Below are positions 3,024-42,373 of a stretch of 64,000 nt of DNA, one piece after another. Where the stretch lies: positions 301,919-365,918 of the forward strand of contig CAKOLO010000002.1 in assembly GCA_934096235.1 (NCBI GenBank), given 5' to 3'. The notes under the pieces were generated by a model. It did not search any database. It was given only the letters and a program-made list of their open reading frames with translations, and was not told the origin of the DNA. Positions within the stretch are counted from its first letter, which is position 1; each line of letters opens with the position of its first letter. The translations under genes were made by a program, and so were the position numbers. Source of the stretch: an uncultured Bacilli bacterium (GTDB lineage Bacteria; Bacillota_I; Bacilli_A; RF39; UBA660).

Positions 3024-3311
3024 TTAATTACACATATTTTTACATTTTTTTTGTAAATTTTTATTATTAAAGTATACGAACGTAGATATTGTTATTATAA
3101 TAAAGATTATATTTATTATTCCATTATTTATTAAATAAAATATTTTAAAATATATTAGTGTTATGTTTATCATAAATAATAAACTATTTAAGAAACTATA
3201 AATTTCTTTTTTAGTGTGTATGTAATTATATGTTGCTTGATATAGTTTCTGCACTATTATTCCATATAAAAAAGAAAATATAAAAGAAATTATTTGTTCA
3301 TTTAGGTCCAT
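3024..3311 (-). CDS. YabQ-like small membrane protein (spore cortex biogenesis)
   Basis: 95-aa hydrophobic protein whose stop overlaps the yabP start (3311); the yabP-yabQ arrangement is conserved. Confidence 0.4.
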   Translation of the reverse strand: MDLNEQIISFIFSFLYGIIVQKLYQATYNYIHTKKEIYSFLNSLLFMINITLIYFKIFYLINNGIINIIFIIITISTFVYFNNKNLQKKCKNMCN

Positions 3312-3598
3312 TATTTAAATAGCCTTGCCATTATATTTTCTGTTCTTATTTTTTTGTTATCATCTAAATAGTTTACTGAATTTATTTTTCCTTTTATAGA
3401 TAGTGTACCTTGAAATGTATCTAGTTTTAATAATTCTAAATTGTCTCCTTTAATAAGTATAGATCCCATAATACTATCTACGAAGAATTCCGAGTCATCA
3501 AAACTATTTAGTTTTTTTATTCCTGAAAGTACAATATTTTTTCTTTCATTTAATGTAATCATATGATTAAATGTTTCGTTTATATCTTTTTTATCCAT
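3311..3598 (-). CDS. yabP: sporulation protein YabP
   Basis: 95 aa; central block LSGIKKLNSFDDSEFFVDSIMGSILIKGDNLEL resembles the YabP family; gene context (yabP-yabQ-divIC) fits. Confidence 0.65.
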   Translation of the reverse strand: MDKKDINETFNHMITLNERKNIVLSGIKKLNSFDDSEFFVDSIMGSILIKGDNLELLKLDTFQGTLSIKGKINSVNYLDDNKKIRTENIMARLFK

Positions 3599-3644
3599 AT
3601 ATTTCCCCCGATACTAAATTTTATGTATAAAATTTAGATATATG

Positions 3645-3669
3645 AAAAAAAGCTACTTAATGTAGCTTT
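3645..3669 (-). terminator. Rho-independent terminator downstream of spoVG
   Basis: Hairpin aaagctac-ttaat-gtagcttt, followed on the minus strand by a T-run (A-run 3645-3651 on plus). Confidence 0.55.
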
Positions 3670-3680
3670 AAGATTACAAA

Positions 3681-3965
3681 TTATTCGTTATCTTCTGTTG
3701 TTTCTTCATCTTCTGCATTTTCATATGCATCAAGAATAGCTTTTTCAAACATTGTTCTTACTTCTTGGTTGATTGGATGAGCTATATCTTTATATTCACC
3801 AACTGGAGTCTTACGACTTGGCATAGCAATAAATAGTCCATTATCACCTTCTATAATTCTAATATCGTGAATAGCGATAGCATTGTCTACTACTACTGAT
3901 GCGATTCCTTTCATACGAGAATTTTCTCTTTCAACCTTACGAATTCTAACTGATGTAATTTCCAT
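3681..3965 (-). CDS. spoVG: septation protein SpoVG
   Basis: [11 protein letters not shown]...[47 protein letters not shown] is a near-canonical SpoVG sequence; acidic C-tail. Confidence 0.9.
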
Positions 3966-4028
3966 AAGTACCTCCTTAACATTTTGTTATTTTAATTATA
4001 TTACAAATATTTTTGAATATCAATATTT

Positions 4029-4244
4029 TTAAGTAAATTTGCTTAGTATTACCTGCTTTATAGCTACATCAGTATAAGTGTATGACTTCAATCCTTTATT
4101 AGTTTTTATCGTAAATAAATTATTATATGTTTTATCTATTGTTCCTTCATAATATTCATGTTTATTTCTTCCAATATTTACTTTTATTTTTAATTTTGTA
4201 CCTTTTAAAGCAATAACATCATTCTTAATTTTATTTATATTCAA
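4029..4244 (-). CDS. veg: Veg-family small protein (biofilm/sporulation-associated)
   Basis: 71 aa; pattern LKIKVNIGRNKHEYYEGTIDKTYNNLFTIKTNKG..SYTYTDVA matches the Veg family (GRrK..eg.i...Yp.vF.i......SY.Y.D). Confidence 0.7.
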   Translation of the reverse strand: MNINKIKNDVIALKGTKLKIKVNIGRNKHEYYEGTIDKTYNNLFTIKTNKGLKSYTYTDVAIKQVILSKFT

Positions 4245-5032
4245 TTTTTATCCTTTCTTGGATATCCAGTGTGCATCATACCATTAATGATGATTCCACC
4301 TATTCCATCACTTCCATATTTAGTTTTTGATAGTAGTTCTTCTATATCTATCTTTTCTGTTTTATCTGTTAAAGCGATAGTTGATGCAATGATTGCTGGA
4401 TCTAATGCATGTATGTTTATTGATTTTGGGCTTGATGCGAATGTTGATTTAGCTTTTATTATGTTTTCGTAATCACTTTGACAAGCACCTGCGATTATCA
4501 CTAAGTCTTCATGACTCTTTTTTACCTTTCTGGCTTCTAGTACTGTTTCTATAAAATATTTACTATTCTTATATGTTTCATTATTTTTTCTTTTTTGATA
4601 GTGTGCATCGTGTCCGGTTATAACTAAAATATCTGGATTATGTGTTATTAAAAGCTTCTTTATATTATTTTTAAACTCATTTTCTTTATATGTGTAGCCA
4701 TAACATTTTATTTTTTGTTCTTTATAAAAACTCATACATTTTTCTAAATATTCATTGTCTCCATCAAGATGTAATATGGTTCCAGGTATATAAAAATAGT
4801 CATCTGTTTTTAGTGTTCTTACTGGATTAATTATTTCTTTTTTTTTAGGAATTGTAGCAAGTATTAAATCATCTTCTTTAGTATCAGCGTATAGTCTTAC
4901 ATCTAATCCTTTTAAATAAATAACATTATTCTCTATTTTATCAATCTTAAATATTATGTCATTACCATACTTTTTTCTTGTAACTAAATCACCTATTTTA
5001 AACATAATTCCTCCATTAAATCTTATGGACAA
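4241..5032 (-). CDS. YabG-like sporulation-specific peptidase
   Basis: 263 aa; size and synteny (next to veg/ksgA as yabG is in B. subtilis); conserved DILVITGHDA-type block. The family assignment is from memory. Confidence 0.5.
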   Translation of the reverse strand: MSIRFNGGIMFKIGDLVTRKKYGNDIIFKIDKIENNVIYLKGLDVRLYADTKEDDLILATIPKKKEIINPVRTLKTDDYFYIPGTILHLDGDNEYLEKCMSFYKEQKIKCYGYTYKENEFKNNIKKLLITHNPDILVITGHDAHYQKRKNNETYKNSKYFIETVLEARKVKKSHEDLVIIAGACQSDYENIIKAKSTFASSPKSINIHALDPAIIASTIALTDKTEKIDIEELLSKTKYGSDGIGGIIINGMMHTGYPRKDKN

Positions 5033-21939: not shown

Positions 21940-23850
21940 CTATATATCTAAATTGCTAACATATATAGCATTTTCTTCTATGAATTTTCTTCTTGGTTCT
22001 ACATCTTCACCCATTAATGTTGTAAATATTTCATCTGCTCCCATTGCATCGTCAACAGTTATTTTTCTAAGGATTCTAAATTCCTTTGACATTGTTGTAT
22101 CTCTTAATTCGTCAGCGTCCATTTCACCCAAACCTTTCATACGGGTAATTGTGTATTTTGCATTTTCTGGAAGTGTCTTTAAATATTCATCTCTTTCATT
22201 TTCATCTAAAACATATTTAATATTTTTTCCATACACTATCTTGAATAAAGGGGGCTGAGCCGCATATACATGTCCATTTTCTACTACAGGTTTGAAGAAT
22301 CTATAAAATAATGTTAATAGAAGAATTCTTATGTGTGACCCGTCAACATCGGCATCGGTCATTATTATAATTTTGTCATATCTAAGTTTTGATAAATCGA
22401 ATTCTTCTCCAATTCCTGTACCAAATGCTGTTACTATAGTTCTAATTTCTTCATTGCTTAATGCTCTATCAAGTCTTGCTTTTTCTACATTTAATATTTT
22501 TCCTCTTAATGGAAGAATAGCTTGTGTCATATAATCTCTACCTTTTTTAGCAGAACCACCGGCTGAATCTCCCTCGACTAGGAATATTTCTGATTCACTT
22601 GGGTCTTTACTTTTACAATCTGTTAGTTTTCCATAGAAATTTGTTATTTCTAGGTCACCTTTTCTTCTTGTTAATTCTCTTGCCTTCTTAGCAGCAACTC
22701 TAGCTCTTGATGCAAGTAATACTTTTTCCATTATTGCTTTAGCTTGATCAGGATTTTCTAGCAAGAATTTTTCAAATCCTGCTCCAAAAACATTGCTTGC
22801 AATTTTTCTCACTTCTACATTTCCAAGTTTTGTCTTTGTTTGACCTTCAAATTGTGGATTTGGATGTTTACAAGATATAACCATTGTTATTCCTTCTTTG
22901 ACATCATCTTGTGTTAATGAATCATCTTTATCTTTTAAAAATCCATTACTTCTCGCATAATTATTTATAACTCTTGATAATGCAAGTCTTACACCATCTT
23001 CATGTGTTCCACCTTCAACTGTATTAATGTTGTTAGTGAATGAGTAAACATTGCTTGTATATCCATCATTATATTGCATTGCTACTTCTATACTTATATC
23101 ATCTTCTGAACCTGATACATCAACAATATCATCATGTATTACTTTTTTATTTGCATTTAGTAGTTTTACGTATTCAACAAGTCCTCCGTTATATAGAAAT
23201 TCATCTTTTTGACCGCTTCTTAAATCACTAAGAATTATTCTAAGTCCCTTGTTTAGGAATGCAAGTTCTCTTGATCTTGTTTTAAGTGTCTCGTAGTCAA
23301 ATGTTGTTGTTTCTTCGAATATTGTTGGATCTGGTTTAAATGTAACAGTTGTTCCTGTTCTATTTTCATCACAATCTCCTATTACTTCTAAACTCTTTAC
23401 TGGATGACCACCATTTTCAAATCTTTGATGATAAATTTTTCCATCTCTATATACTTTAACTTCTAACCAGCTTGATAATGCATTAACAACCGATGCACCA
23501 ACACCATGTAGACCACCAGATACTTTATAACCTTTTCCACCAAATTTACCACCAGCATGTAATACTGTAAATATTGTTTCTACAGTAGAAATTCCTGTTT
23601 TTGGATGTATTCCTGTAGGCATTCCTCTACCGTCATCTTTAACTGTAACACTATTATCTTCGTTTACTATAATTTCAATATCATCACAATATCCCGCTAA
23701 AGATTCGTCCACAGAGTTATCCACAATTTCCCAAACTAGGTGATGTAATCCTCTTACACCTGTTGTTCCAATGTACATACCAGGTCTTTTTCTTACCGCT
23801 TCTAAGCCCTCTAATACTTGAATATCATTTACACCATATTCTTCTTTCAT
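21940..23850 (-). CDS. gyrB: DNA gyrase subunit B
   Basis: 636 aa; GHKL ATPase ([16 protein letters not shown]), Toprim [20 protein letters not shown]. Confidence 0.95.
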
Positions 23851-25020: not shown

Positions 25021-25060
25021 TAAAAAAAGATAATTTTAATTTTAATTATCTTTTTTTGCT
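25021..25060. terminator. bidirectional hairpin terminator between comK-like and recF
   Basis: aaagataatt-ttaatttt-aattatcttt, a 10-bp stem flanked by an A-run and a T-run. Confidence 0.5.
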
Positions 25061-25497
25061 GTTCTTTCATCTAAAACAAATTTTAATCTTGTGGCTCTAA
25101 GAATTTGATTGGATAATGAGCCATATGATAAATCAAATTCCAAGATATCACCGTTCTTAAATAGAATTGCTGACCTATTATTTTCCAATTTGTAGTATTT
25201 TTCAATTTTTTCCAAATTAATCCATATGCAATCTTCTCTTTCTGGTGATGTTGTAGGAAAAAAAATCATTTTTCTACTTTCTTCTACTATTATTGGTGAT
25301 TTGTGAGTTATTCCGAGCATCTTACGAGTTCCATCTTTTCTTCCTTCAAATGAACTGCCAAAATATTCACAACTGTGTTCTAAAATTTCTTGAACTGAGT
25401 TATTAACTATGTATTCACTATCATGTTCTATTACTTTTGATTTGAACTCATCAATTGGAAGAACTAATTGTGTATCATAGTTTATTTCATAATTCAT
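25042..25497 (-). CDS. ComK-family competence transcription factor-like protein
   Basis: 151 aa; the blocks SCEYFGSSFEGRKDGTRKMLGITHKSPIIV and MIFFPTTSPEREDCIWI and FDLSYGSLSNQILRATRLK align with the conserved ComK core of B. subtilis ComK as I recall it (SCRFFGSSYAGRKAGT..ISHKPPIMV / IFLFPTLSSTRPQCGWI / ISYNSFENQVYRTAWLR). Good RBS AAAGGGGG. Confidence 0.7.
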   Translation of the reverse strand: MNYEINYDTQLVLPIDEFKSKVIEHDSEYIVNNSVQEILEHSCEYFGSSFEGRKDGTRKMLGITHKSPIIVEESRKMIFFPTTSPEREDCIWINLEKIEKYYKLENNRSAILFKNGDILEFDLSYGSLSNQILRATRLKFVLDERTAKKDN

Positions 25498-25612: not shown

Positions 25613-26731
25613 TTAGTAAGTTTTCATTGGTAAAATCAACTCAATTAATTCGTCATTTTCTGCTTCTTTTAAAATTATAGGACTTATTTCACCATTTAAT
25701 AAGATAAATATTTCTTCTTTATTAAATACTTTTAATGCTTCCATCATATATTTAACACTGAATGAAATTTTAATATCATTCTCTGTTTCATTTACAATTG
25801 TTATTTTATCTTTTCCTTTTCCTTCAGTACTTGCTGCTCTAATTATTAACTCTGTTCCTGAAACTTCCATATCTACTATATTTTTATCTTTAGATTGAGT
25901 TAATGATGATGCTGTATCAAGTAAACTGTATAAATCCTTTAAATTAGCTTTGATTTTATGTTTAAATTCTTTAGGAATTGAATTATCAGTGTTTGGATAA
26001 GTTCCATTTAATAATGAAGTTTGGAATATAATATTATTAAATTTAAATAGAGCTTTATTTGGAAATACATGAATTTCTAATTCAGATTCTTTATCGATTG
26101 TTTTAACTAATTCATTGATATTTCTTGCTGGTATTACCATATTAACATTTTCTGAATACATTTCATCCAACTTTATAGTTACTTTTGAAAGTCTATATGA
26201 ATCTGTGGCTACACATTCAAAGATATCTCCTAGTAATTTAATGTTAACACCTGTTAATAATGGTCTGCTCTCTTGAAGTGAACATGCAAAAGATGTTTTA
26301 TTAATTATTTCTTTGAATTTTTGACTATCTAATTTAATTGGATTTTTAACTTCTTCTAATTTAATATTAGGAAAGTCTTCTTGATTAAAGCATGGGAAGT
26401 CATATATTCCTCCACTTTCTGTTTTAAATGATACTTCATTATTTTCAAAGTTTTCTACTAAAATATTTGTGTTTTGTAGTTTGCTTACAGTACTTAATAA
26501 AGTTTTTCCATATATAATAGTACATCCAACTTCGTCAATACTTTTAATTTCTTTTTTATCAATAAATGTTTGTATTGTAATATCATTGTCAGTTGCTGTT
26601 AAATAAAGCCCTTCTTTTGTTAGTTCAAACTTGATACCATTAAGTACAGGAATTATATTTCTTGTAGATAATGCTTTACTTACACAATTTAATCCTTCCA
26701 TTAAAATATTTTTTTCTATTAACATTTTCAT
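25613..26731 (-). CDS. dnaN: DNA polymerase III beta sliding clamp
   Basis: 372 aa; three-domain clamp; directly downstream of dnaA. Confidence 0.9.
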   Translation of the reverse strand: MKMLIEKNILMEGLNCVSKALSTRNIIPVLNGIKFELTKEGLYLTATDNDITIQTFIDKKEIKSIDEVGCTIIYGKTLLSTVSKLQNTNILVENFENNEVSFKTESGGIYDFPCFNQEDFPNIKLEEVKNPIKLDSQKFKEIINKTSFACSLQESRPLLTGVNIKLLGDIFECVATDSYRLSKVTIKLDEMYSENVNMVIPARNINELVKTIDKESELEIHVFPNKALFKFNNIIFQTSLLNGTYPNTDNSIPKEFKHKIKANLKDLYSLLDTASSLTQSKDKNIVDMEVSGTELIIRAASTEGKGKDKITIVNETENDIKISFSVKYMMEALKVFNKEEIFILLNGEISPIILKEAENDELIELILPMKTY

Positions 26732-26876
26732 AATAATTTTTTCCTCCTTTTTCTTATTATATATATTATTTATTACTATTATAGAGTGTTAATAATGTTG
26801 ATAACTCATTTAATACTAGGTTTTATCTACGTATTATGTAAACTTATAATTGTTAAGATGTTTATAACTTGTGTGT

Positions 26877-28286
26877 TTATTCACAAATTTTTTCTTTTAG
26901 TATCTTAATTTCTTCTTGAAGTTTTGTATTTGTTTTTAGTTCATTTGAAATTTTTTCGTGTGAGTATATAACTGTTGAATGATCTCTACCTCCAAATTCT
27001 AAGCCTATTCTTTGTAAACTTTCTTCTGTCATTATTCTACTTAAATACATTGCTATCGCTCGAGCATCTGTAACATTTTTCTTTTTCATTTTTCCTTTTA
27101 GCATCGATGCCTCTAAATTGAAGTATTTGGCAACTATATCTATGATTTTAGCTACAGAATTTGTTCTATATACTGTCTTTGGTACAAATTCTTGTAGTGC
27201 ATCTTGTGCTATTTCTAGTGTTACTTCAGGAATATTAAATGCTGCTTTATATGCAACAATTCTTATAACAGCACCTTCTAAGTTTCTTATATCACTTCCA
27301 CAGTTACTTGCTATATAGTTAATAACATCTTCATTTATATCTAAATCATAGTCATTAATCATTATTTTATTCTTAATTATATTCTTTTTAAGCTCTAGTT
27401 CTGGTGGATTAATTGATTCTGTTAATCCCCATCTAAACCTTGTTTTAAGCCTATCTTCTAGGTATTTATAGTCATTTATTGATGTATCAGAAGCAATTAT
27501 TATTTGTTTTTCATTATCATATAATGTATTAAATGTGTTAGTAAATTCTATTTGTGATTTTGTTGCGTTTTCTAGAAATTGTATATCATCAATCATCAAT
27601 ACATCAACATTTCTATATTTTTCTCTAAAAGCTTCTAAATAACTAACATTGTTATCATATTTATTTTTAGCATTTATTATGGCTCTATAGTCATTTGTAA
27701 ATTGTTCTGCAGTAATGTAGAGAACTCTTTTGTCTGAGTGATTTACTATATAATTTCCTATTGCATGCATTAAATGTGTTTTACCTAATCCACTTTTTGC
27801 ATATATAAAATAAGGATTATATAATTTTCCTGGATTTTGTGCTACTGCTAATGCTGTTCCATATGCTAATTTATTGGAATCGCCAACGACAAATGTATCA
27901 AAAGTATATTTTGGGTTAAAATTGCTTATATATTTATAATTTGTTAAATCATTTGCTGTTGATTCTTCTATTTCTTCTTCAATTTCTTTTTTACTTTGTT
28001 TTTTCGGTTTTTCAGCCATTTTTTCAAGTTTTTTTATATCTTTTTCAAACATGTAAGATATTTCACATGTATCACTTGTTATATCGTTTAATATATCTTC
28101 TATTATTGAACTATAATTTTTAGTTATATTTTGTAATAAAAGCTCATTTGTAGGTACTATTATTATTATTTTACTATCTTCATAAGAATAAAGTTTTAGA
28201 TCCTTAAATATGTAGTTATAGGACATTAATGATACTTTATTTTTGATTTTCTCTAGAAATTTTTTCCAAATATCTTCAATATCCAT
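26877..28286 (-). CDS. dnaA: chromosomal replication initiator DnaA
   Basis: 469 aa; Walker A GKSGLGKTHL, sensor/box VII, C-terminal DNA-binding HTH (DHSTV). Confidence 0.95.
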   Translation of the reverse strand: MDIEDIWKKFLEKIKNKVSLMSYNYIFKDLKLYSYEDSKIIIIVPTNELLLQNITKNYSSIIEDILNDITSDTCEISYMFEKDIKKLEKMAEKPKKQSKKEIEEEIEESTANDLTNYKYISNFNPKYTFDTFVVGDSNKLAYGTALAVAQNPGKLYNPYFIYAKSGLGKTHLMHAIGNYIVNHSDKRVLYITAEQFTNDYRAIINAKNKYDNNVSYLEAFREKYRNVDVLMIDDIQFLENATKSQIEFTNTFNTLYDNEKQIIIASDTSINDYKYLEDRLKTRFRWGLTESINPPELELKKNIIKNKIMINDYDLDINEDVINYIASNCGSDIRNLEGAVIRIVAYKAAFNIPEVTLEIAQDALQEFVPKTVYRTNSVAKIIDIVAKYFNLEASMLKGKMKKKNVTDARAIAMYLSRIMTEESLQRIGLEFGGRDHSTVIYSHEKISNELKTNTKLQEEIKILKEKICE

Positions 28287-28438
28287 AACATATTCTCCTT
28301 TCTAATGTTGCTTTCTAACTAAAATTATAGTTCAACTTTTTTTAAAGTCAAATATAAAATTTATTTAACATTTATATTAACAACTTATTCACGATTTGTA
28401 AACAACTTTTTTTCTTTTATTTACTACTTTAATTTTAG

Positions 28439-28548
28439 TTATCCACAATATCAACAAATTTACAATTTAATTATTTTTTTAATTGTGGATAACTTGTTGA
28501 TAAGTTAACATAATATTGTGGATATAGTGTTGATAAGTTAACATAATA
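28439..28548. promoter_or_regulatory. oriC DnaA-box cluster
   Basis: Perfect DnaA boxes TTATCCACA (28439-28447) and TGTGGATAA (28484-28492); one-mismatch boxes at 28448, 28495, 28517 and 28528; a 20-bp direct repeat GTTGATAAGTTAACATAATA x2. A further one-mismatch box TGTTGATAA at 26796-26804 lies between dnaA and dnaN. Confidence 0.75.
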
Positions 28549-28612
28549 AATTTGAAAAATAAGTTTACATAATATTAAAAATAGTTTAAAATATATATGG
28601 AGATATGGGAAA

Positions 28613-30076
28613 ATGAATAAGAAAGAATTGTTAGAAAATTATTTAAAAAAATTATACAAAATATATATTGAAAAAGACTTTAATGAGTTTGTTAATACGA
28701 TACTAAGTTATAACATAAGGATTGGAGATTATAAGAAAGATATTTCATCAATTTCTAAAAAAATTTTTGACGAAATATTGGTTTTACTTCCTGAAAGTAA
28801 GGCGAAATTCTCATATAAAGAATTTACCAATTTTTATAAGATAAATATAATATATAAAGAATATAACGATCCAACGCCTAAAGTCATAATAGATGTTCCG
28901 GTGTTTATAGAAAACTATGAAAAAATAACAAATAATTTAATAAAATTTTTAATAGAAAATAAAATTAATTCTTATATTAAACTACAAAAAGTATCTCAAA
29001 ATGCTTTACTTGAAATTCGCGTTGATAATGAAGCAGAAGCTAAAAAGATAGTTAATCACTTTAAAACAAATAAAGAAATAGTTCAAGAAATAAAATCTAG
29101 GGTAGTTCCATTTTTACCTGAAGATAATCTACTAGGTTTTTCATATGAATATAAACCATATAATTTTAAAAATTTTTATTATGTTTGTTTATATGAATAT
29201 TTTTCAACACTTAAATCTATCGATAATTTAACTTTGGATGGTTTAGTTGCTTACATAGATAATAAATATAAAGTTGAAAGAAGACTAAATAAAAAGAGAA
29301 TGCTATTATCAATTTATAATAGTATTAGGGTTATAAATGAAGAAGATGATATTTATTCTATGTTTAGATATAATTCTGATATGAATATTGGCAGTATAAA
29401 TCCTAATGAGTTTGATTTAAAACTTGATGAAAATAAGATGATATTTTTTGTTAATAAATTGGATGAAAGAATAATTTCATATGGAAGTGAAGAATATTTG
29501 AATTTAGTTTATTCAAAATTTTATGATAATTTTATTAAAAGAGAAGAGAGTTCTACATATTATGGCTATTTTTATAATATTTTTAGTAAAATTTTATCAG
29601 ATGATTACAAAGATATTGATAAATTATTAGATTTTTCTAATATGCAAAAAGATTATATTTATACTTTAATGATGTTAATATCTAGTTTGTTCTTTGCATA
29701 TAAAAAAATGAATTTTTCATTAAATGATGTTTATTCTATATTAAAATATGTGCTATTTAAAAAATATAAACTAGAAATCAAAATAAAATCTTCAGAAGAA
29801 TATGAAGAAAAGAAAAATATATATATTTTTCCATTAAATATTGAATATGGAAATAAAGTCGTTGATTTAAAAGATAAATCTAAAATAACAGTTAAGGAAT
29901 ATTTTAGGCAAAATAAAATTGAGGATACCATTCCTTTAAATTCTCTTGTATATATGAAAGATGGAAAAATATTAAAGGGAGAAGATTTTTTAAGAGATTT
30001 ATATAAATATATTGGTTTATATGATTCATTTGAAGAATTGAGAAATTCACTAATAAGTTTAATAGAATTTAAATAA
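28613..30076 (+). CDS. hypothetical cytoplasmic protein (487 aa, K/Y/N-rich, no recognisable domain)
   Basis: Long uninterrupted ORF with an RBS-like GGAGATATGGG upstream; no TM segment or known motif. Confidence 0.5.
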   Translation: MNKKELLENYLKKLYKIYIEKDFNEFVNTILSYNIRIGDYKKDISSISKKIFDEILVLLPESKAKFSYKEFTNFYKINIIYKEYNDPTPKVIIDVPVFIENYEKITNNLIKFLIENKINSYIKLQKVSQNALLEIRVDNEAEAKKIVNHFKTNKEIVQEIKSRVVPFLPEDNLLGFSYEYKPYNFKNFYYVCLYEYFSTLKSIDNLTLDGLVAYIDNKYKVERRLNKKRMLLSIYNSIRVINEEDDIYSMFRYNSDMNIGSINPNEFDLKLDENKMIFFVNKLDERIISYGSEEYLNLVYSKFYDNFIKREESSTYYGYFYNIFSKILSDDYKDIDKLLDFSNMQKDYIYTLMMLISSLFFAYKKMNFSLNDVYSILKYVLFKKYKLEIKIKSSEEYEEKKNIYIFPLNIEYGNKVVDLKDKSKITVKEYFRQNKIEDTIPLNSLVYMKDGKILKGEDFLRDLYKYIGLYDSFEELRNSLISLIEFK

Positions 30077-30145
30077 ATAATTGACAATTTTAACTTGTTA
30101 GTATATAATCTAACTCAGTCGAGAGAAGAAATGGAGGTAAAATCA

Positions 30146-30268
30146 ATGAAAAGAACATTTCAACCTAATAATAGAAAGAAAGCAAAAACTTCAGGATTTT
30201 TAGCAAGAAAAGGTACTAATGTATTAAAATCTAGAAGAGCAAAAGGAAGAAAAGAATTATCAAAATAA
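30146..30268 (+). CDS. rpmH: 50S ribosomal protein L34
   Basis: Manual translation gives [40 protein letters not shown]; RBS GGAGGT; too short for the ORF track. Confidence 0.85.
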
Positions 30269-41311: not shown

Positions 41312-42373
41312 ATGAAAGAAAGATTAGAAATAATACAAGAAAGATATAATAATTTATGTGAAGAATTATTAAAACCAGAAGTTTATAATGATTATAAAAA
41401 GATGCAAACTATATCTAAAGAGAAGAATTCTATTGAACCTGTGGTAGAAGCTTATAAAAAGTATAATACTGTTTTAGATGATATAGAAGCAGCTAAAGAG
41501 ATGAGTAAAGATTCCGAAATGAAGGAATTTGCTTTAGAAGAAATAGATAATTTACATAAAGAGAAAGAAACATTAGAAAGTAAATTAAAGATTATGCTTT
41601 TACCTAAGGATCCTAATGATGAAAAGAATGTTATTATTGAGATTCGTGGTGCTGCTGGAGGAGATGAGGCTAATATTTTTGCTGGAGACTTATTTAGAAT
41701 GTATACTAAATATGCTGAAAAGCAAGGATGGAAGCTTGAAGTAACTCATGAAGTACCTGGTGAAAGTGGAGGATATTCTCAAATAGAATTTATGCTTAGT
41801 GGAGAAAGTGTTTATTCAAAACTTAAGTATGAAAGTGGTGCTCATAGAGTTCAAAGAGTACCTGAAACTGAATCTGCTGGAAGAGTACATACAAGTACAG
41901 CGACAGTATTAGTTATGCCAGAAGCAGAAGAAATAGATGTAGAAATTAAAGATAGTGATATTAGAATAGATATAACTCGTAGTAGTGGAGCTGGAGGCCA
42001 ATGTGTTAATACAACTGACTCTGCTGTTAGAGTTACACATATACCAACTGGTATAATAGTTTATTGCCAAGTAGAAAGAAGTCAAATAAAGAATAAAGAA
42101 AGAGCACTTCAAATATTAAAAACAAGACTTTATGATTTAAAACAAAGAGAGCAAGATGAAAAACTTGGTAATGAAAGAAGAAGTAAGATAGGTACAGGAG
42201 ATAGAGCTGAAAAGATAAGAACATATAATTATCCACAAAATAGACTTACTGATCATAGAATTAATTATACTGTAATGCATTTAGATAAGATTATGGAAGG
42301 TGACCTAGAAGACTTAATTAATGCATTAATTGCTGAAGATGAAAGAATGAGACTTGAAGAACATAATGATTAA
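41312..42373 (+). CDS. prfA: peptide chain release factor 1
   Basis: PxT-equivalent region and GGQ motif (SGAGGQCVNTTDSAVR). Confidence 0.95.
   Translation: MKERLEIIQERYNNLCEELLKPEVYNDYKKMQTISKEKNSIEPVVEAYKKYNTVLDDIEAAKEMSKDSEMKEFALEEIDNLHKEKETLESKLKIMLLPKDPNDEKNVIIEIRGAAGGDEANIFAGDLFRMYTKYAEKQGWKLEVTHEVPGESGGYSQIEFMLSGESVYSKLKYESGAHRVQRVPETESAGRVHTSTATVLVMPEAEEIDVEIKDSDIRIDITRSSGAGGQCVNTTDSAVRVTHIPTGIIVYCQVERSQIKNKERALQILKTRLYDLKQREQDEKLGNERRSKIGTGDRAEKIRTYNYPQNRLTDHRINYTVMHLDKIMEGDLEDLINALIAEDERMRLEEHND

Follow-up and report, generated by a model that had tools for sequence, protein, structure and literature searches.

A fast-evolving gene between the oriC1 DnaA-box cluster and rpmH in uncultured gut Bacilli, encoding a predicted divergent relative of the HopA1/phospho-Ser/Thr-lyase fold

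The chromosomal origins of Bacillus subtilis and Clostridioides difficile are bipartite: a DnaA-box cluster lies upstream of dnaA (oriC1), and the dnaA-dnaN spacer (oriC2), where unwinding occurs, carries tandem boxes, a GC-cluster, TA(A/G) triplets and AT-rich DNA (PMC7561715). We analyzed a stretch of 64,000 nucleotides (the window) from an uncultured Bacilli bacterium (GenBank assembly GCA_934096235.1, contig CAKOLO010000002.1, positions 301,919 to 365,918), which resembles these origins in the above sequence features as well as in the GC (guanine plus cytosine) skew and strand switch at the origin, but differs from them in that, here and in part of its clade, a 1.46-kb protein gene, which we call ORF487 after its open reading frame (ORF) of 487 amino acids, splits oriC1 from rpmH. 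In B. subtilis dnaA itself flanks the origin's DnaA-box cluster and is regulated through those boxes. In Pseudomonas aeruginosa gidAB-parAB, next to oriCII, are reported to be further origin-flanking genes regulated through a DnaA-box cluster. ORF487 is comparable to such genes in having a box cluster immediately upstream of a sigma-70-type promoter; it differs from them in that any regulation would go through boxes that are part of the origin and older than the gene. The systems closest to its product are the LanY lyases (LxmY, PDB 9DK1; CaoY), which belong to class V lanthipeptide and thioamitide pathways, and HopA1, an effector of Pseudomonas syringae (PDB 4RSW, PF17914). On balance we favor the reading that ORF487 is a vertically inherited, fast-evolving accessory gene, a passenger beside oriC, whose product would be a cleft binder with lost or changed chemistry. 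The gene and the genes on either side of it are:

28613-30076, plus strand: ORF487 coding sequence, 487 amino acids, ATG start, GGAG 9 nucleotides upstream
26877-28286, minus strand: dnaA (gene call; Pfam Bac_DnaA and Bac_DnaA_C on homologous genes)
30146-30268, plus strand: rpmH (L34, 40 amino acids; gene call; PF00468 on homologous genes)

ORF487 is a genuine gene under clear purifying selection, albeit a fast-evolving one. Homologs were sought in 5.8 billion proteins with a word index, which recovered 63, all without a name or a Pfam domain and with full-length matches reaching down to 37% identity, and in 1.8 billion cluster representatives with an exhaustive profile search, which gave 131 matches, the full-length ones reaching down to 32% identity. 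The ratio of nonsynonymous (dN) to synonymous (dS) substitution rates is 0.07-0.20 in close pairs, versus 0.02-0.06 for dnaA, and dN runs at three to four times the values of dnaA, dnaN and recF. There are no paralogs in the window. The protein contains 12.9% K, 9.4% Y, 8.8% N and 6.6% F, has an isoelectric point of 8.25 and lacks a hydrophobic segment (maximum Kyte-Doolittle 19-residue mean 1.08), which fits the K/Y/N/F-rich, cytoplasmic product of a preliminary description of this DNA. GC content at third codon positions (GC3; 0.125) is the same as that of the neighboring genes, and the overall GC content (0.199), the lowest in the block together with that of rnpA, is low because of the amino-acid composition. 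The AT-rich genome and this unusual composition would suit a spurious open frame, a possibility named in the preliminary description; full-length conservation to 32% identity and dN/dS far below 1, along with a confident fold and a conserved ribosome-binding site and promoter, leave that idea with next to no probability.

The gene order recF-comK-dnaN-dnaA, then the boxes, from which dnaA and the ORF diverge, then ORF487 and rpmH-rnpA-yidC-jag, was found in 17 species-representative genomes, and it recurs in every contig fetched for full-length members of the family, at 32-89% identity. These records are uncultured gut metagenome-assembled genomes (MAGs) labeled 'Clostridium sp. CAG:524', 'Mollicutes bacterium', 'Bacilli bacterium' or 'Mycoplasmatota bacterium'; the clade has small genomes of about 25% GC, one complete chromosome measuring 1.53 Mb. 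The gene is dispensable and no universal companion of this origin architecture. A metagenome scan with the window's DnaA yielded 46 loci, in which presence or absence was judged where the region upstream of dnaA was included: 26 related loci, with rpmH or rnpA and a dnaA product of 57-86% identity, show no trace of the ORF, rpmH starting only 290-565 bp from dnaA, and one further locus has a truncated ORF.

Several ORF-less loci are close relatives of the window. Their DnaA is 85-86% identical to that of the window in L033/L034 and 81-82% in L044/L056 (the latter with DnaN at 80-82% and RecF at 81-82%), compared with 81-82% in the ORF-bearing L010/L011 group and 62-78% in the ORF-bearing L003, L014, L026, L001 and L028. 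By DnaA and RecF all four ORF-less loci match the window no less closely than the L010 group does, and more closely than the other five ORF-bearing loci; by DnaN, YidC and Jag this closeness is clear only for L044 and L056. A neighbor-joining tree of DnaA places one ORF-less group outside the ORF-bearing clade and two others within it. L035, the sister of L033/L034 in that tree, carries a 382-residue ORF (3031-4179, minus strand) that ends before the linker and C-terminal module. Its form is matched by variants of 382-386 residues (P0053, P0054 and P0071), which end directly upstream of the rpmH promoter; since 75 member sequences stand behind P0054, truncation is an established state and no sequencing artefact. 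The simplest history for this distribution would be one insertion, followed by at least two deletions and one truncation. Accordingly, of the two roles offered in the preliminary description, a lineage-specific insertion into the canonical rnpA-rpmH-dnaA-dnaN arrangement agrees with presence and absence in related loci, whereas an origin-associated regulator does not: the gene is absent or truncated at DnaA identities of 77-86% while the box cluster is the same.

A patchy distribution among close relatives, divergence three to four times faster than that of the neighbors and the low overall GC might also be expected of a recently acquired mobile or defence gene targeting the dnaA-rpmH spacer. 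Such an origin is very improbable: there is no integrase, flanking repeat or tRNA, GC3 equals that of the neighbors, phage and plasmid collections, PADLOC and PHROGs yielded no matches, ORF divergence tracks host-gene divergence, which already speaks against repeated acquisition, and all lineages share the same junctions.

The spacers of ORF-less loci have an unchanged set and order of elements: the dnaA promoter, a TTATTCACA-like box, GTAAACA, a TTATCMACA-ATATCAACA pair, two box-pair repeats, a third AAGTT(A/T)ACATAAT element, a short AT-rich stretch and the rpmH promoter TTGAC(A/T)-17-TATAAT. No relics of the ORF were detected in them above noise. Because these spacers retain all such elements, ORF487 is placed outside oriC1, with the box cluster unaffected by the gene. 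The ORF-less sisters, in which the cluster abuts the rpmH promoter, thus display what had been described as the normal arrangement, while the earlier placement of the gene inside oriC has to be given up, the gene lying outside both box clusters.

Three individual loci in this set deserve separate mention. The ORF-less L033 has a long spacer of about 565 bp (3937-4500), in which about 240 bp of very AT-rich DNA separate the origin repeats from the rpmH promoter; this stretch has no detectable similarity to the ORF, and may be a decayed remnant of it. In L028 (6001-7482; P0067) the Joint Genome Institute call reads an in-frame TGA as Trp, adding 8 residues; since the family alignment ends there (..LIEFN, then stop), the TGA is a stop codon and the code-4 call probably an annotation artefact. 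In the complete MAG chromosome L020 (CP091739.1, 985534-996994) dnaA, dnaN, recF, yidC and the ORF match in shifted pieces, which looks like frameshift errors of a long-read assembly and not like pseudogenes.

The upstream box cluster and its repeat are:

28385-28536: oriC1 DnaA-box cluster, boxes at 28385, 28439, 28448, 28484, 28495, 28517 and 28528 (box scan plus alignment)
28482-28547, plus strand: 33-bp tandem repeat, each copy consisting of two DnaA boxes and GTTAACATAAT (repeat family D2, 91% identity)

Boxes were sought by scanning the whole window for TTATCCACA with at most one mismatch. The 326-bp spacer between dnaA and ORF487 contains perfect boxes at 28439 (plus strand) and 28484 (minus strand) and one-mismatch boxes at 28495, 28517 and 28528 (all minus strand), that is, five boxes in 98 bp (28439-28536); two-mismatch boxes at 28385 and 28448 are conserved in the lineage alignment. 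Window-wide, box-like 9-mers number 29 against 22.6 +/- 4.5 by chance; as this is no excess, it is the clustering and not the number of boxes that constitutes the signal. Box positions relative to the ORF487 start (-174, -129, -118 and -85) are kept across lineages, and 76 bp separate the end of the last box (28536) from the ATG. The preliminary description had the two perfect boxes right but counted at least four one-mismatch boxes where three were found; it correctly saw the gene close to the last box, at a distance it put at about 65 bp; and its 20-bp direct repeat is actually the 33-bp tandem repeat.

An 18-nucleotide element, ATAAGTT(A/T)ACATAAT.., occurs in three copies in oriC1 (28500-28517, 28533-28550 and 28559-28576, plus strand), two of which are fused to DnaA-box pairs, and again, inverted, in the dnaA-dnaN spacer (26833-26846, minus strand). 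This origin repeat is conserved across lineages, the ORF-less ones included, and is no recognizable DnaA box; it may be a site for a second binding protein or a promoter-like element. The boxes themselves vary: in the divergent lineages L001, L028/L029, L014 and L003 the conserved positions are occupied by TTATTAACA or TTACTAACA in place of TTATCCACA, and a one-mismatch TTATCCACA scan of the dnaA-ORF spacers of these lineages returned no boxes. This suggests that the box consensus of the clade is drifting towards AT, a departure from B. subtilis and C. difficile.

Three promoters can be placed around these elements:

28324-28351, minus strand: candidate dnaA promoter, TTGACT-16-TATAAT (11 of 12 positions; both hexamers conserved)
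28564-28592, plus strand: candidate ORF487 promoter, TTTACA-17-TAAAAT (10 of 12; -35 inside the third origin-repeat copy, AAGTTTACATAAT)
30081-30109, plus strand: rpmH promoter, TTGACA-17-TATAAT (12 of 12; 4 nucleotides past the ORF487 stop codon)

All ORF-bearing lineages keep the -10 element of ORF487 (TAAAAT or TACAAT), in many cases preceded by TG, with GGAG after it, and the origin repeat carrying the -35 element is also present in ORF-less genomes. Since this repeat pre-exists where the gene is lacking, the -10 element and ribosome-binding site appear to have come with the insert and the -35 element to have been borrowed, which would make ORF487 its own transcription unit. No intrinsic terminator was found after ORF487. 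The perfect promoter just after its stop codon, conserved in ORF-bearing and ORF-less lineages alike, indicates that rpmH has a promoter of its own. The -35 element of ORF487 starts 27 bp downstream of the last box, the boxes lying 27-130 bp upstream of the promoter, so that they flank the core promoter and do not overlap it. Contrary to the earlier assertion that the promoter must overlap the boxes, then, the best and conserved candidate starts downstream of them. The boxes do adjoin the predicted promoter, as in a DnaA-regulated gene, and modulation of ORF487 expression by DnaA is plausible, although the geometry does not require it.

This arrangement bears on the proposal that ORF487 is an origin-linked regulator, placed under DnaA control and feeding back on initiation or coupling it to another process. 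Every family member recovered sits at this one site while the distant relatives are scattered, the boxes precede a conserved promoter, and the -35 element lies within a repeat of the origin that recurs in oriC2. We nevertheless consider such a role improbable: close lineages with the same box cluster lack or truncate the gene, and the protein has a phospho-lyase-type fold, in which no DNA-binding or DnaA-interacting domain and no known initiation-regulator fold was found. Moreover, the rnpA-rpmH-dnaA-dnaN order is stable in Firmicutes (PMC7561715), so that the keeping of an insertion there is the null expectation.

The second box cluster lies on the far side of dnaA:

26787-26804, minus strand: tandem DnaA boxes TTATCAACA and TTATTAACA, directly adjacent, conserved in all lineages aligned
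26754-26786, minus strand: CACTC, then TAA/TAG triplets and AT-rich DNA; candidate DnaA-trio/unwinding element

The dnaA-dnaN spacer measures 145 bp, its AT run reaching the dnaN ribosome-binding site, and the order box-box-CACTC-TA(A/G) repeats-AT run is kept in 10 lineages. A bipartite origin, composed of oriC1 and oriC2, is thereby supported at the sequence level, as had been proposed, the extra box noted in the AT-rich spacer turning out to be not single but one of a conserved tandem pair. The GC skew is negative through the 28001-28500 bin and positive from 28501, with the cumulative minimum at the same point. Non-nested ORFs of at least 120 amino acids from 1343 to 28286 are all on the minus strand, and those to the right of 28613 nearly all on the plus strand. 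As the sign change of the skew coincides with this flip in gene orientation, placing the origin here, as the preliminary description did, is sound.

The three domains of the ORF487 product are predicted to be:

28613-29377, plus strand: N-terminal domain, residues ~1-255, HopA1/phospho-Ser/Thr-lyase fold
29384-29767, plus strand: beta-hairpin and helical middle domain, residues ~258-385, with a conserved FFAYKKM motif
29825-30073, plus strand: C-terminal alpha/beta module, residues ~405-487, missing in the 382-residue variants

ORF487 had been called domain-less, which holds for sequence libraries only: Pfam, NCBIfam, PHROGs and PADLOC gave no matches (Pfam none even at E = 10), PDB sequences none with the single protein, the family profile (A1) or the distant-relative profile (A3), and tblastn against phage and plasmid collections nothing similar. 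An A3 profile search of a large protein database returned 6 proteins, none of them named. Structurally the N-terminal half is far from featureless. An AlphaFold2 model built on a 23-sequence family alignment has a mean predicted local distance difference test score of 86.5, dropping to low confidence at residues 254-256 and 391-402 alone, and shows the compact alpha/beta fold of the lyase superfamily; independently, Foldseek ranked HopA1, CuvL, LxmY, ThurKC, OspF, SpvC and VirA among its top 22 structures, at probabilities of 0.87-1.00. The distant relatives of ORF487 share its N-terminal and middle domains only (hhalign probability 99.6%, E 3e-24), while the C-terminal module is shared by a HopA1-containing group, A5 (hhalign probability 98.6%, E 9e-16), whose members include P0105, P0117, P0127, P0128 and P0148. 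Two of these module-sharing relatives, P0148 (30.6 bits) and P0127 (24.0 bits), pass the Pfam HopA1 threshold (22.7 bits). The HopA1-fold assignment thus has structural support from Foldseek and indirect sequence support from module-sharing relatives that reach the PF17914 threshold. By hmmsearch and alignment, P0109 apparently has about three copies of the C-terminal module.

The likeness to HopA1 and the LanY lyases has clear bounds. In contrast to them ORF487 has no Pfam match, APH-type kinase partner, precursor peptide or nearby biosynthetic cluster; motif mapping puts Ile92 in place of the Lys/Arg that activates the substrate carbonyl; and the protein has two extra domains without a relative of solved structure and a housekeeping chromosomal context. 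Its identity to known phospho-lyases is 5-12%, the His is replaced and the Arg-rich phosphate pocket is not recognizable; unlike them it is not a secreted protein and carries no fused kinase or cyclase, and the window's sub-clade has lost the first Lys. No partner kinase stands beside ORF487, the neighbors being dnaA, rpmH, rnpA, yidC and jag. The distant relatives occupy unrelated chromosomal contexts (ddl/cotJ, rubrerythrin/dxs, rpoZ or unannotated genes; one lies beside the sporulation and spore-coat genes spoIID, spoIIID and cotJB), and their neighbors differ each time, with neither a conserved partner nor a kinase among them. In view of the failure in Pfam, the missing partner kinase and the missing key catalytic residue, ORF487 is filed as a divergent structural relative and not as a PF17914 member or a lyase.

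In known enzymes of this fold the active site comprises K104, H106, K136, R148, D201, R213 and R220 in SpvC, K65, H67, K94, K117, D152, R163 and R191 in ThurKC (PMC10604976), and R187, K219, R229 and Y236, without a His, in the HopA1-like LanY CaoY (PMC9486802). Replacing SpvC K104 or ThurKC K65 kills activity (PMC10604976), and so does replacing CaoY R187 (PMC9486802). With Arg in the place of Lys104 and no His, CaoY demonstrates that non-canonical active sites are tolerated (PMC9486802). In the distant relatives of ORF487 five motifs are kept in a constant order: (I/V)K(L/I)Y(I/V)P with SK 31 residues on, R-x-D...V(I/V)RV, NPF, G(I/V)G-x-A-x-D and SYN. The K-to-K spacing of 31 compares with 32 in SpvC (K104-K136), 29 in ThurKC (K65-K94) and 32 in CaoY (R187-K219). 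On the mapping by motif order and spacing, the window protein has Ile92 at the SpvC K104 position (I/T/S/V in the sub-clade), Asp94 at that of H106, Lys123 at that of K136 and Glu179 at that of D201. Where the relatives have the Arg of R-x-D, the window protein has Gln129 and most of the clade Lys; R-x-D has also lost its Asp, and SYN its Ser, both nearly invariant in the relatives. The first Lys is kept in the deep-branching P0056, P0062, P0066, P0067 and P0072 (three of them with the Tyr) and in 23 of 25 distant relatives; the retention in deep-branching members marks the erosion of the active site as derived in the window's sub-clade. Lys123, aligned with the lysine of the relatives' SK, is retained in over 90% of alignment A1, though some deep members have V, S or N there; Lys126 never varies within the clade but does in the relatives; and Asn130 is invariant.

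As the corresponding Lys/Arg replacement abolishes activity in SpvC, ThurKC and CaoY, canonical lyase chemistry is unlikely for ORF487. A still-active beta-elimination enzyme, acting on phospho-Ser/Thr or a related group of a cellular phosphoprotein or peptide with its kinase encoded elsewhere, is possible but doubtful. The HopA1/LanY fold itself, the retention of Lys123, a basic residue at 129, Asn130 and Glu179 at family motif positions, the latitude seen in CaoY and the purifying selection on the gene would all suit an enzyme. They have to be set against Ile, Thr, Ser or Val at the position of SpvC Lys104, ThurKC Lys65 and CaoY Arg187 in the sub-clade, the loss of the R-x-D Asp and S-Y-N Ser, and the lack of a neighboring kinase gene in any context.

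The reading of ORF487 as a passenger with altered chemistry would then run as follows. The gene would have been inserted once, in the ancestor of one gut-Bacilli clade, between the last oriC1 repeat and the rpmH promoter, and its retention would be owed to a rearrangement-resistant junction and not to any need of the origin. Several sub-lineages would later have deleted it cleanly or truncated it, the DnaA-box cluster staying in place. DnaA occupancy and origin-proximal gene dosage may set its expression. The product would be a three-domain cytoplasmic protein with a HopA1/LanY/LanKC-lyase/SpvC-like fold, a helical middle and a C-terminal alpha/beta module, in which the former lyase cleft may bind a (phospho)protein or peptide and the two extra domains may give specificity; it would have no role in origin firing. 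A non-essential accessory function fits with the fast evolution, truncation and repeated loss of the gene.

Several points weigh against this reading. The strict co-location of all members with the origin is equally expected from an origin-linked function, and loss in some lineages is compatible with a modulatory role where the gene is present. The history of gain and loss derives from a one-gene neighbor-joining topology and pairwise identities of seven proteins. The active-site mapping is one of motif order and spacing and not a residue-level superposition, and Lys123, Lys126 and Asn130 could rebuild a working site. A bolder proposal makes ORF487 a cell-cycle factor of this lineage: DnaA occupancy of oriC1 would gate its synthesis, and its remodeled phospho-lyase cleft would bind, or irreversibly erase, Ser/Thr phosphorylation on a replication or division protein. 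We give it only a slim chance; if true, initiation would be coupled to phospho-signaling in reduced-genome gut Bacilli, and the lineages that lost the gene would have rewired that coupling.

Literature searches found no account of a gene between rpmH and dnaA for this lineage, and as far as they show the placement of ORF487 between oriC1 and rpmH is undescribed. The rnpA-rpmH-dnaA-dnaN junction being among the most conserved Firmicute gene orders, a gene lodged there for long is unusual; in light of the presence/absence data it is a curiosity of genome architecture and not a new origin component. Lineages in which the gene is complete, truncated or missing share one DnaA-box architecture; this natural experiment suggests that oriC1 and the rpmH promoter can be separated by about 1.5 kb without the box cluster being reshaped. 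On the protein side, the HopA1/phospho-Ser/Thr-lyase fold would be extended to stand-alone, three-domain cytoplasmic Firmicute proteins that Pfam does not capture, in a family without any annotation and outside lanthipeptide clusters and secretion systems. The value of these observations is descriptive; they leave views on how origins or lyases work unchanged.

The window as a whole is a canonical Firmicute origin block with two divergent arms:

minus-strand arm: gyrB, recF, ComK-family gene, dnaN (25613-26731), dnaA (26877-28286)
plus-strand arm: ORF487, rpmH, rnpA, yidC, jag, mnmE, mnmG

Two more perfect TTATCCACA boxes lie elsewhere in the window (23717-23725 and 42229-42237, plus strand). 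They are isolated and fall inside coding regions, namely the 5' part of gyrB and an ORF at 41312-42373. The ComK-family gene (PF06338, E 9e-46; 25042-25497, minus strand) lies between dnaN and recF, and a ComK gene occupies this position in every related locus that reaches that far, with or without ORF487. The same position in B. subtilis is occupied by a small S4-like gene (yaaA/rlbA) instead.

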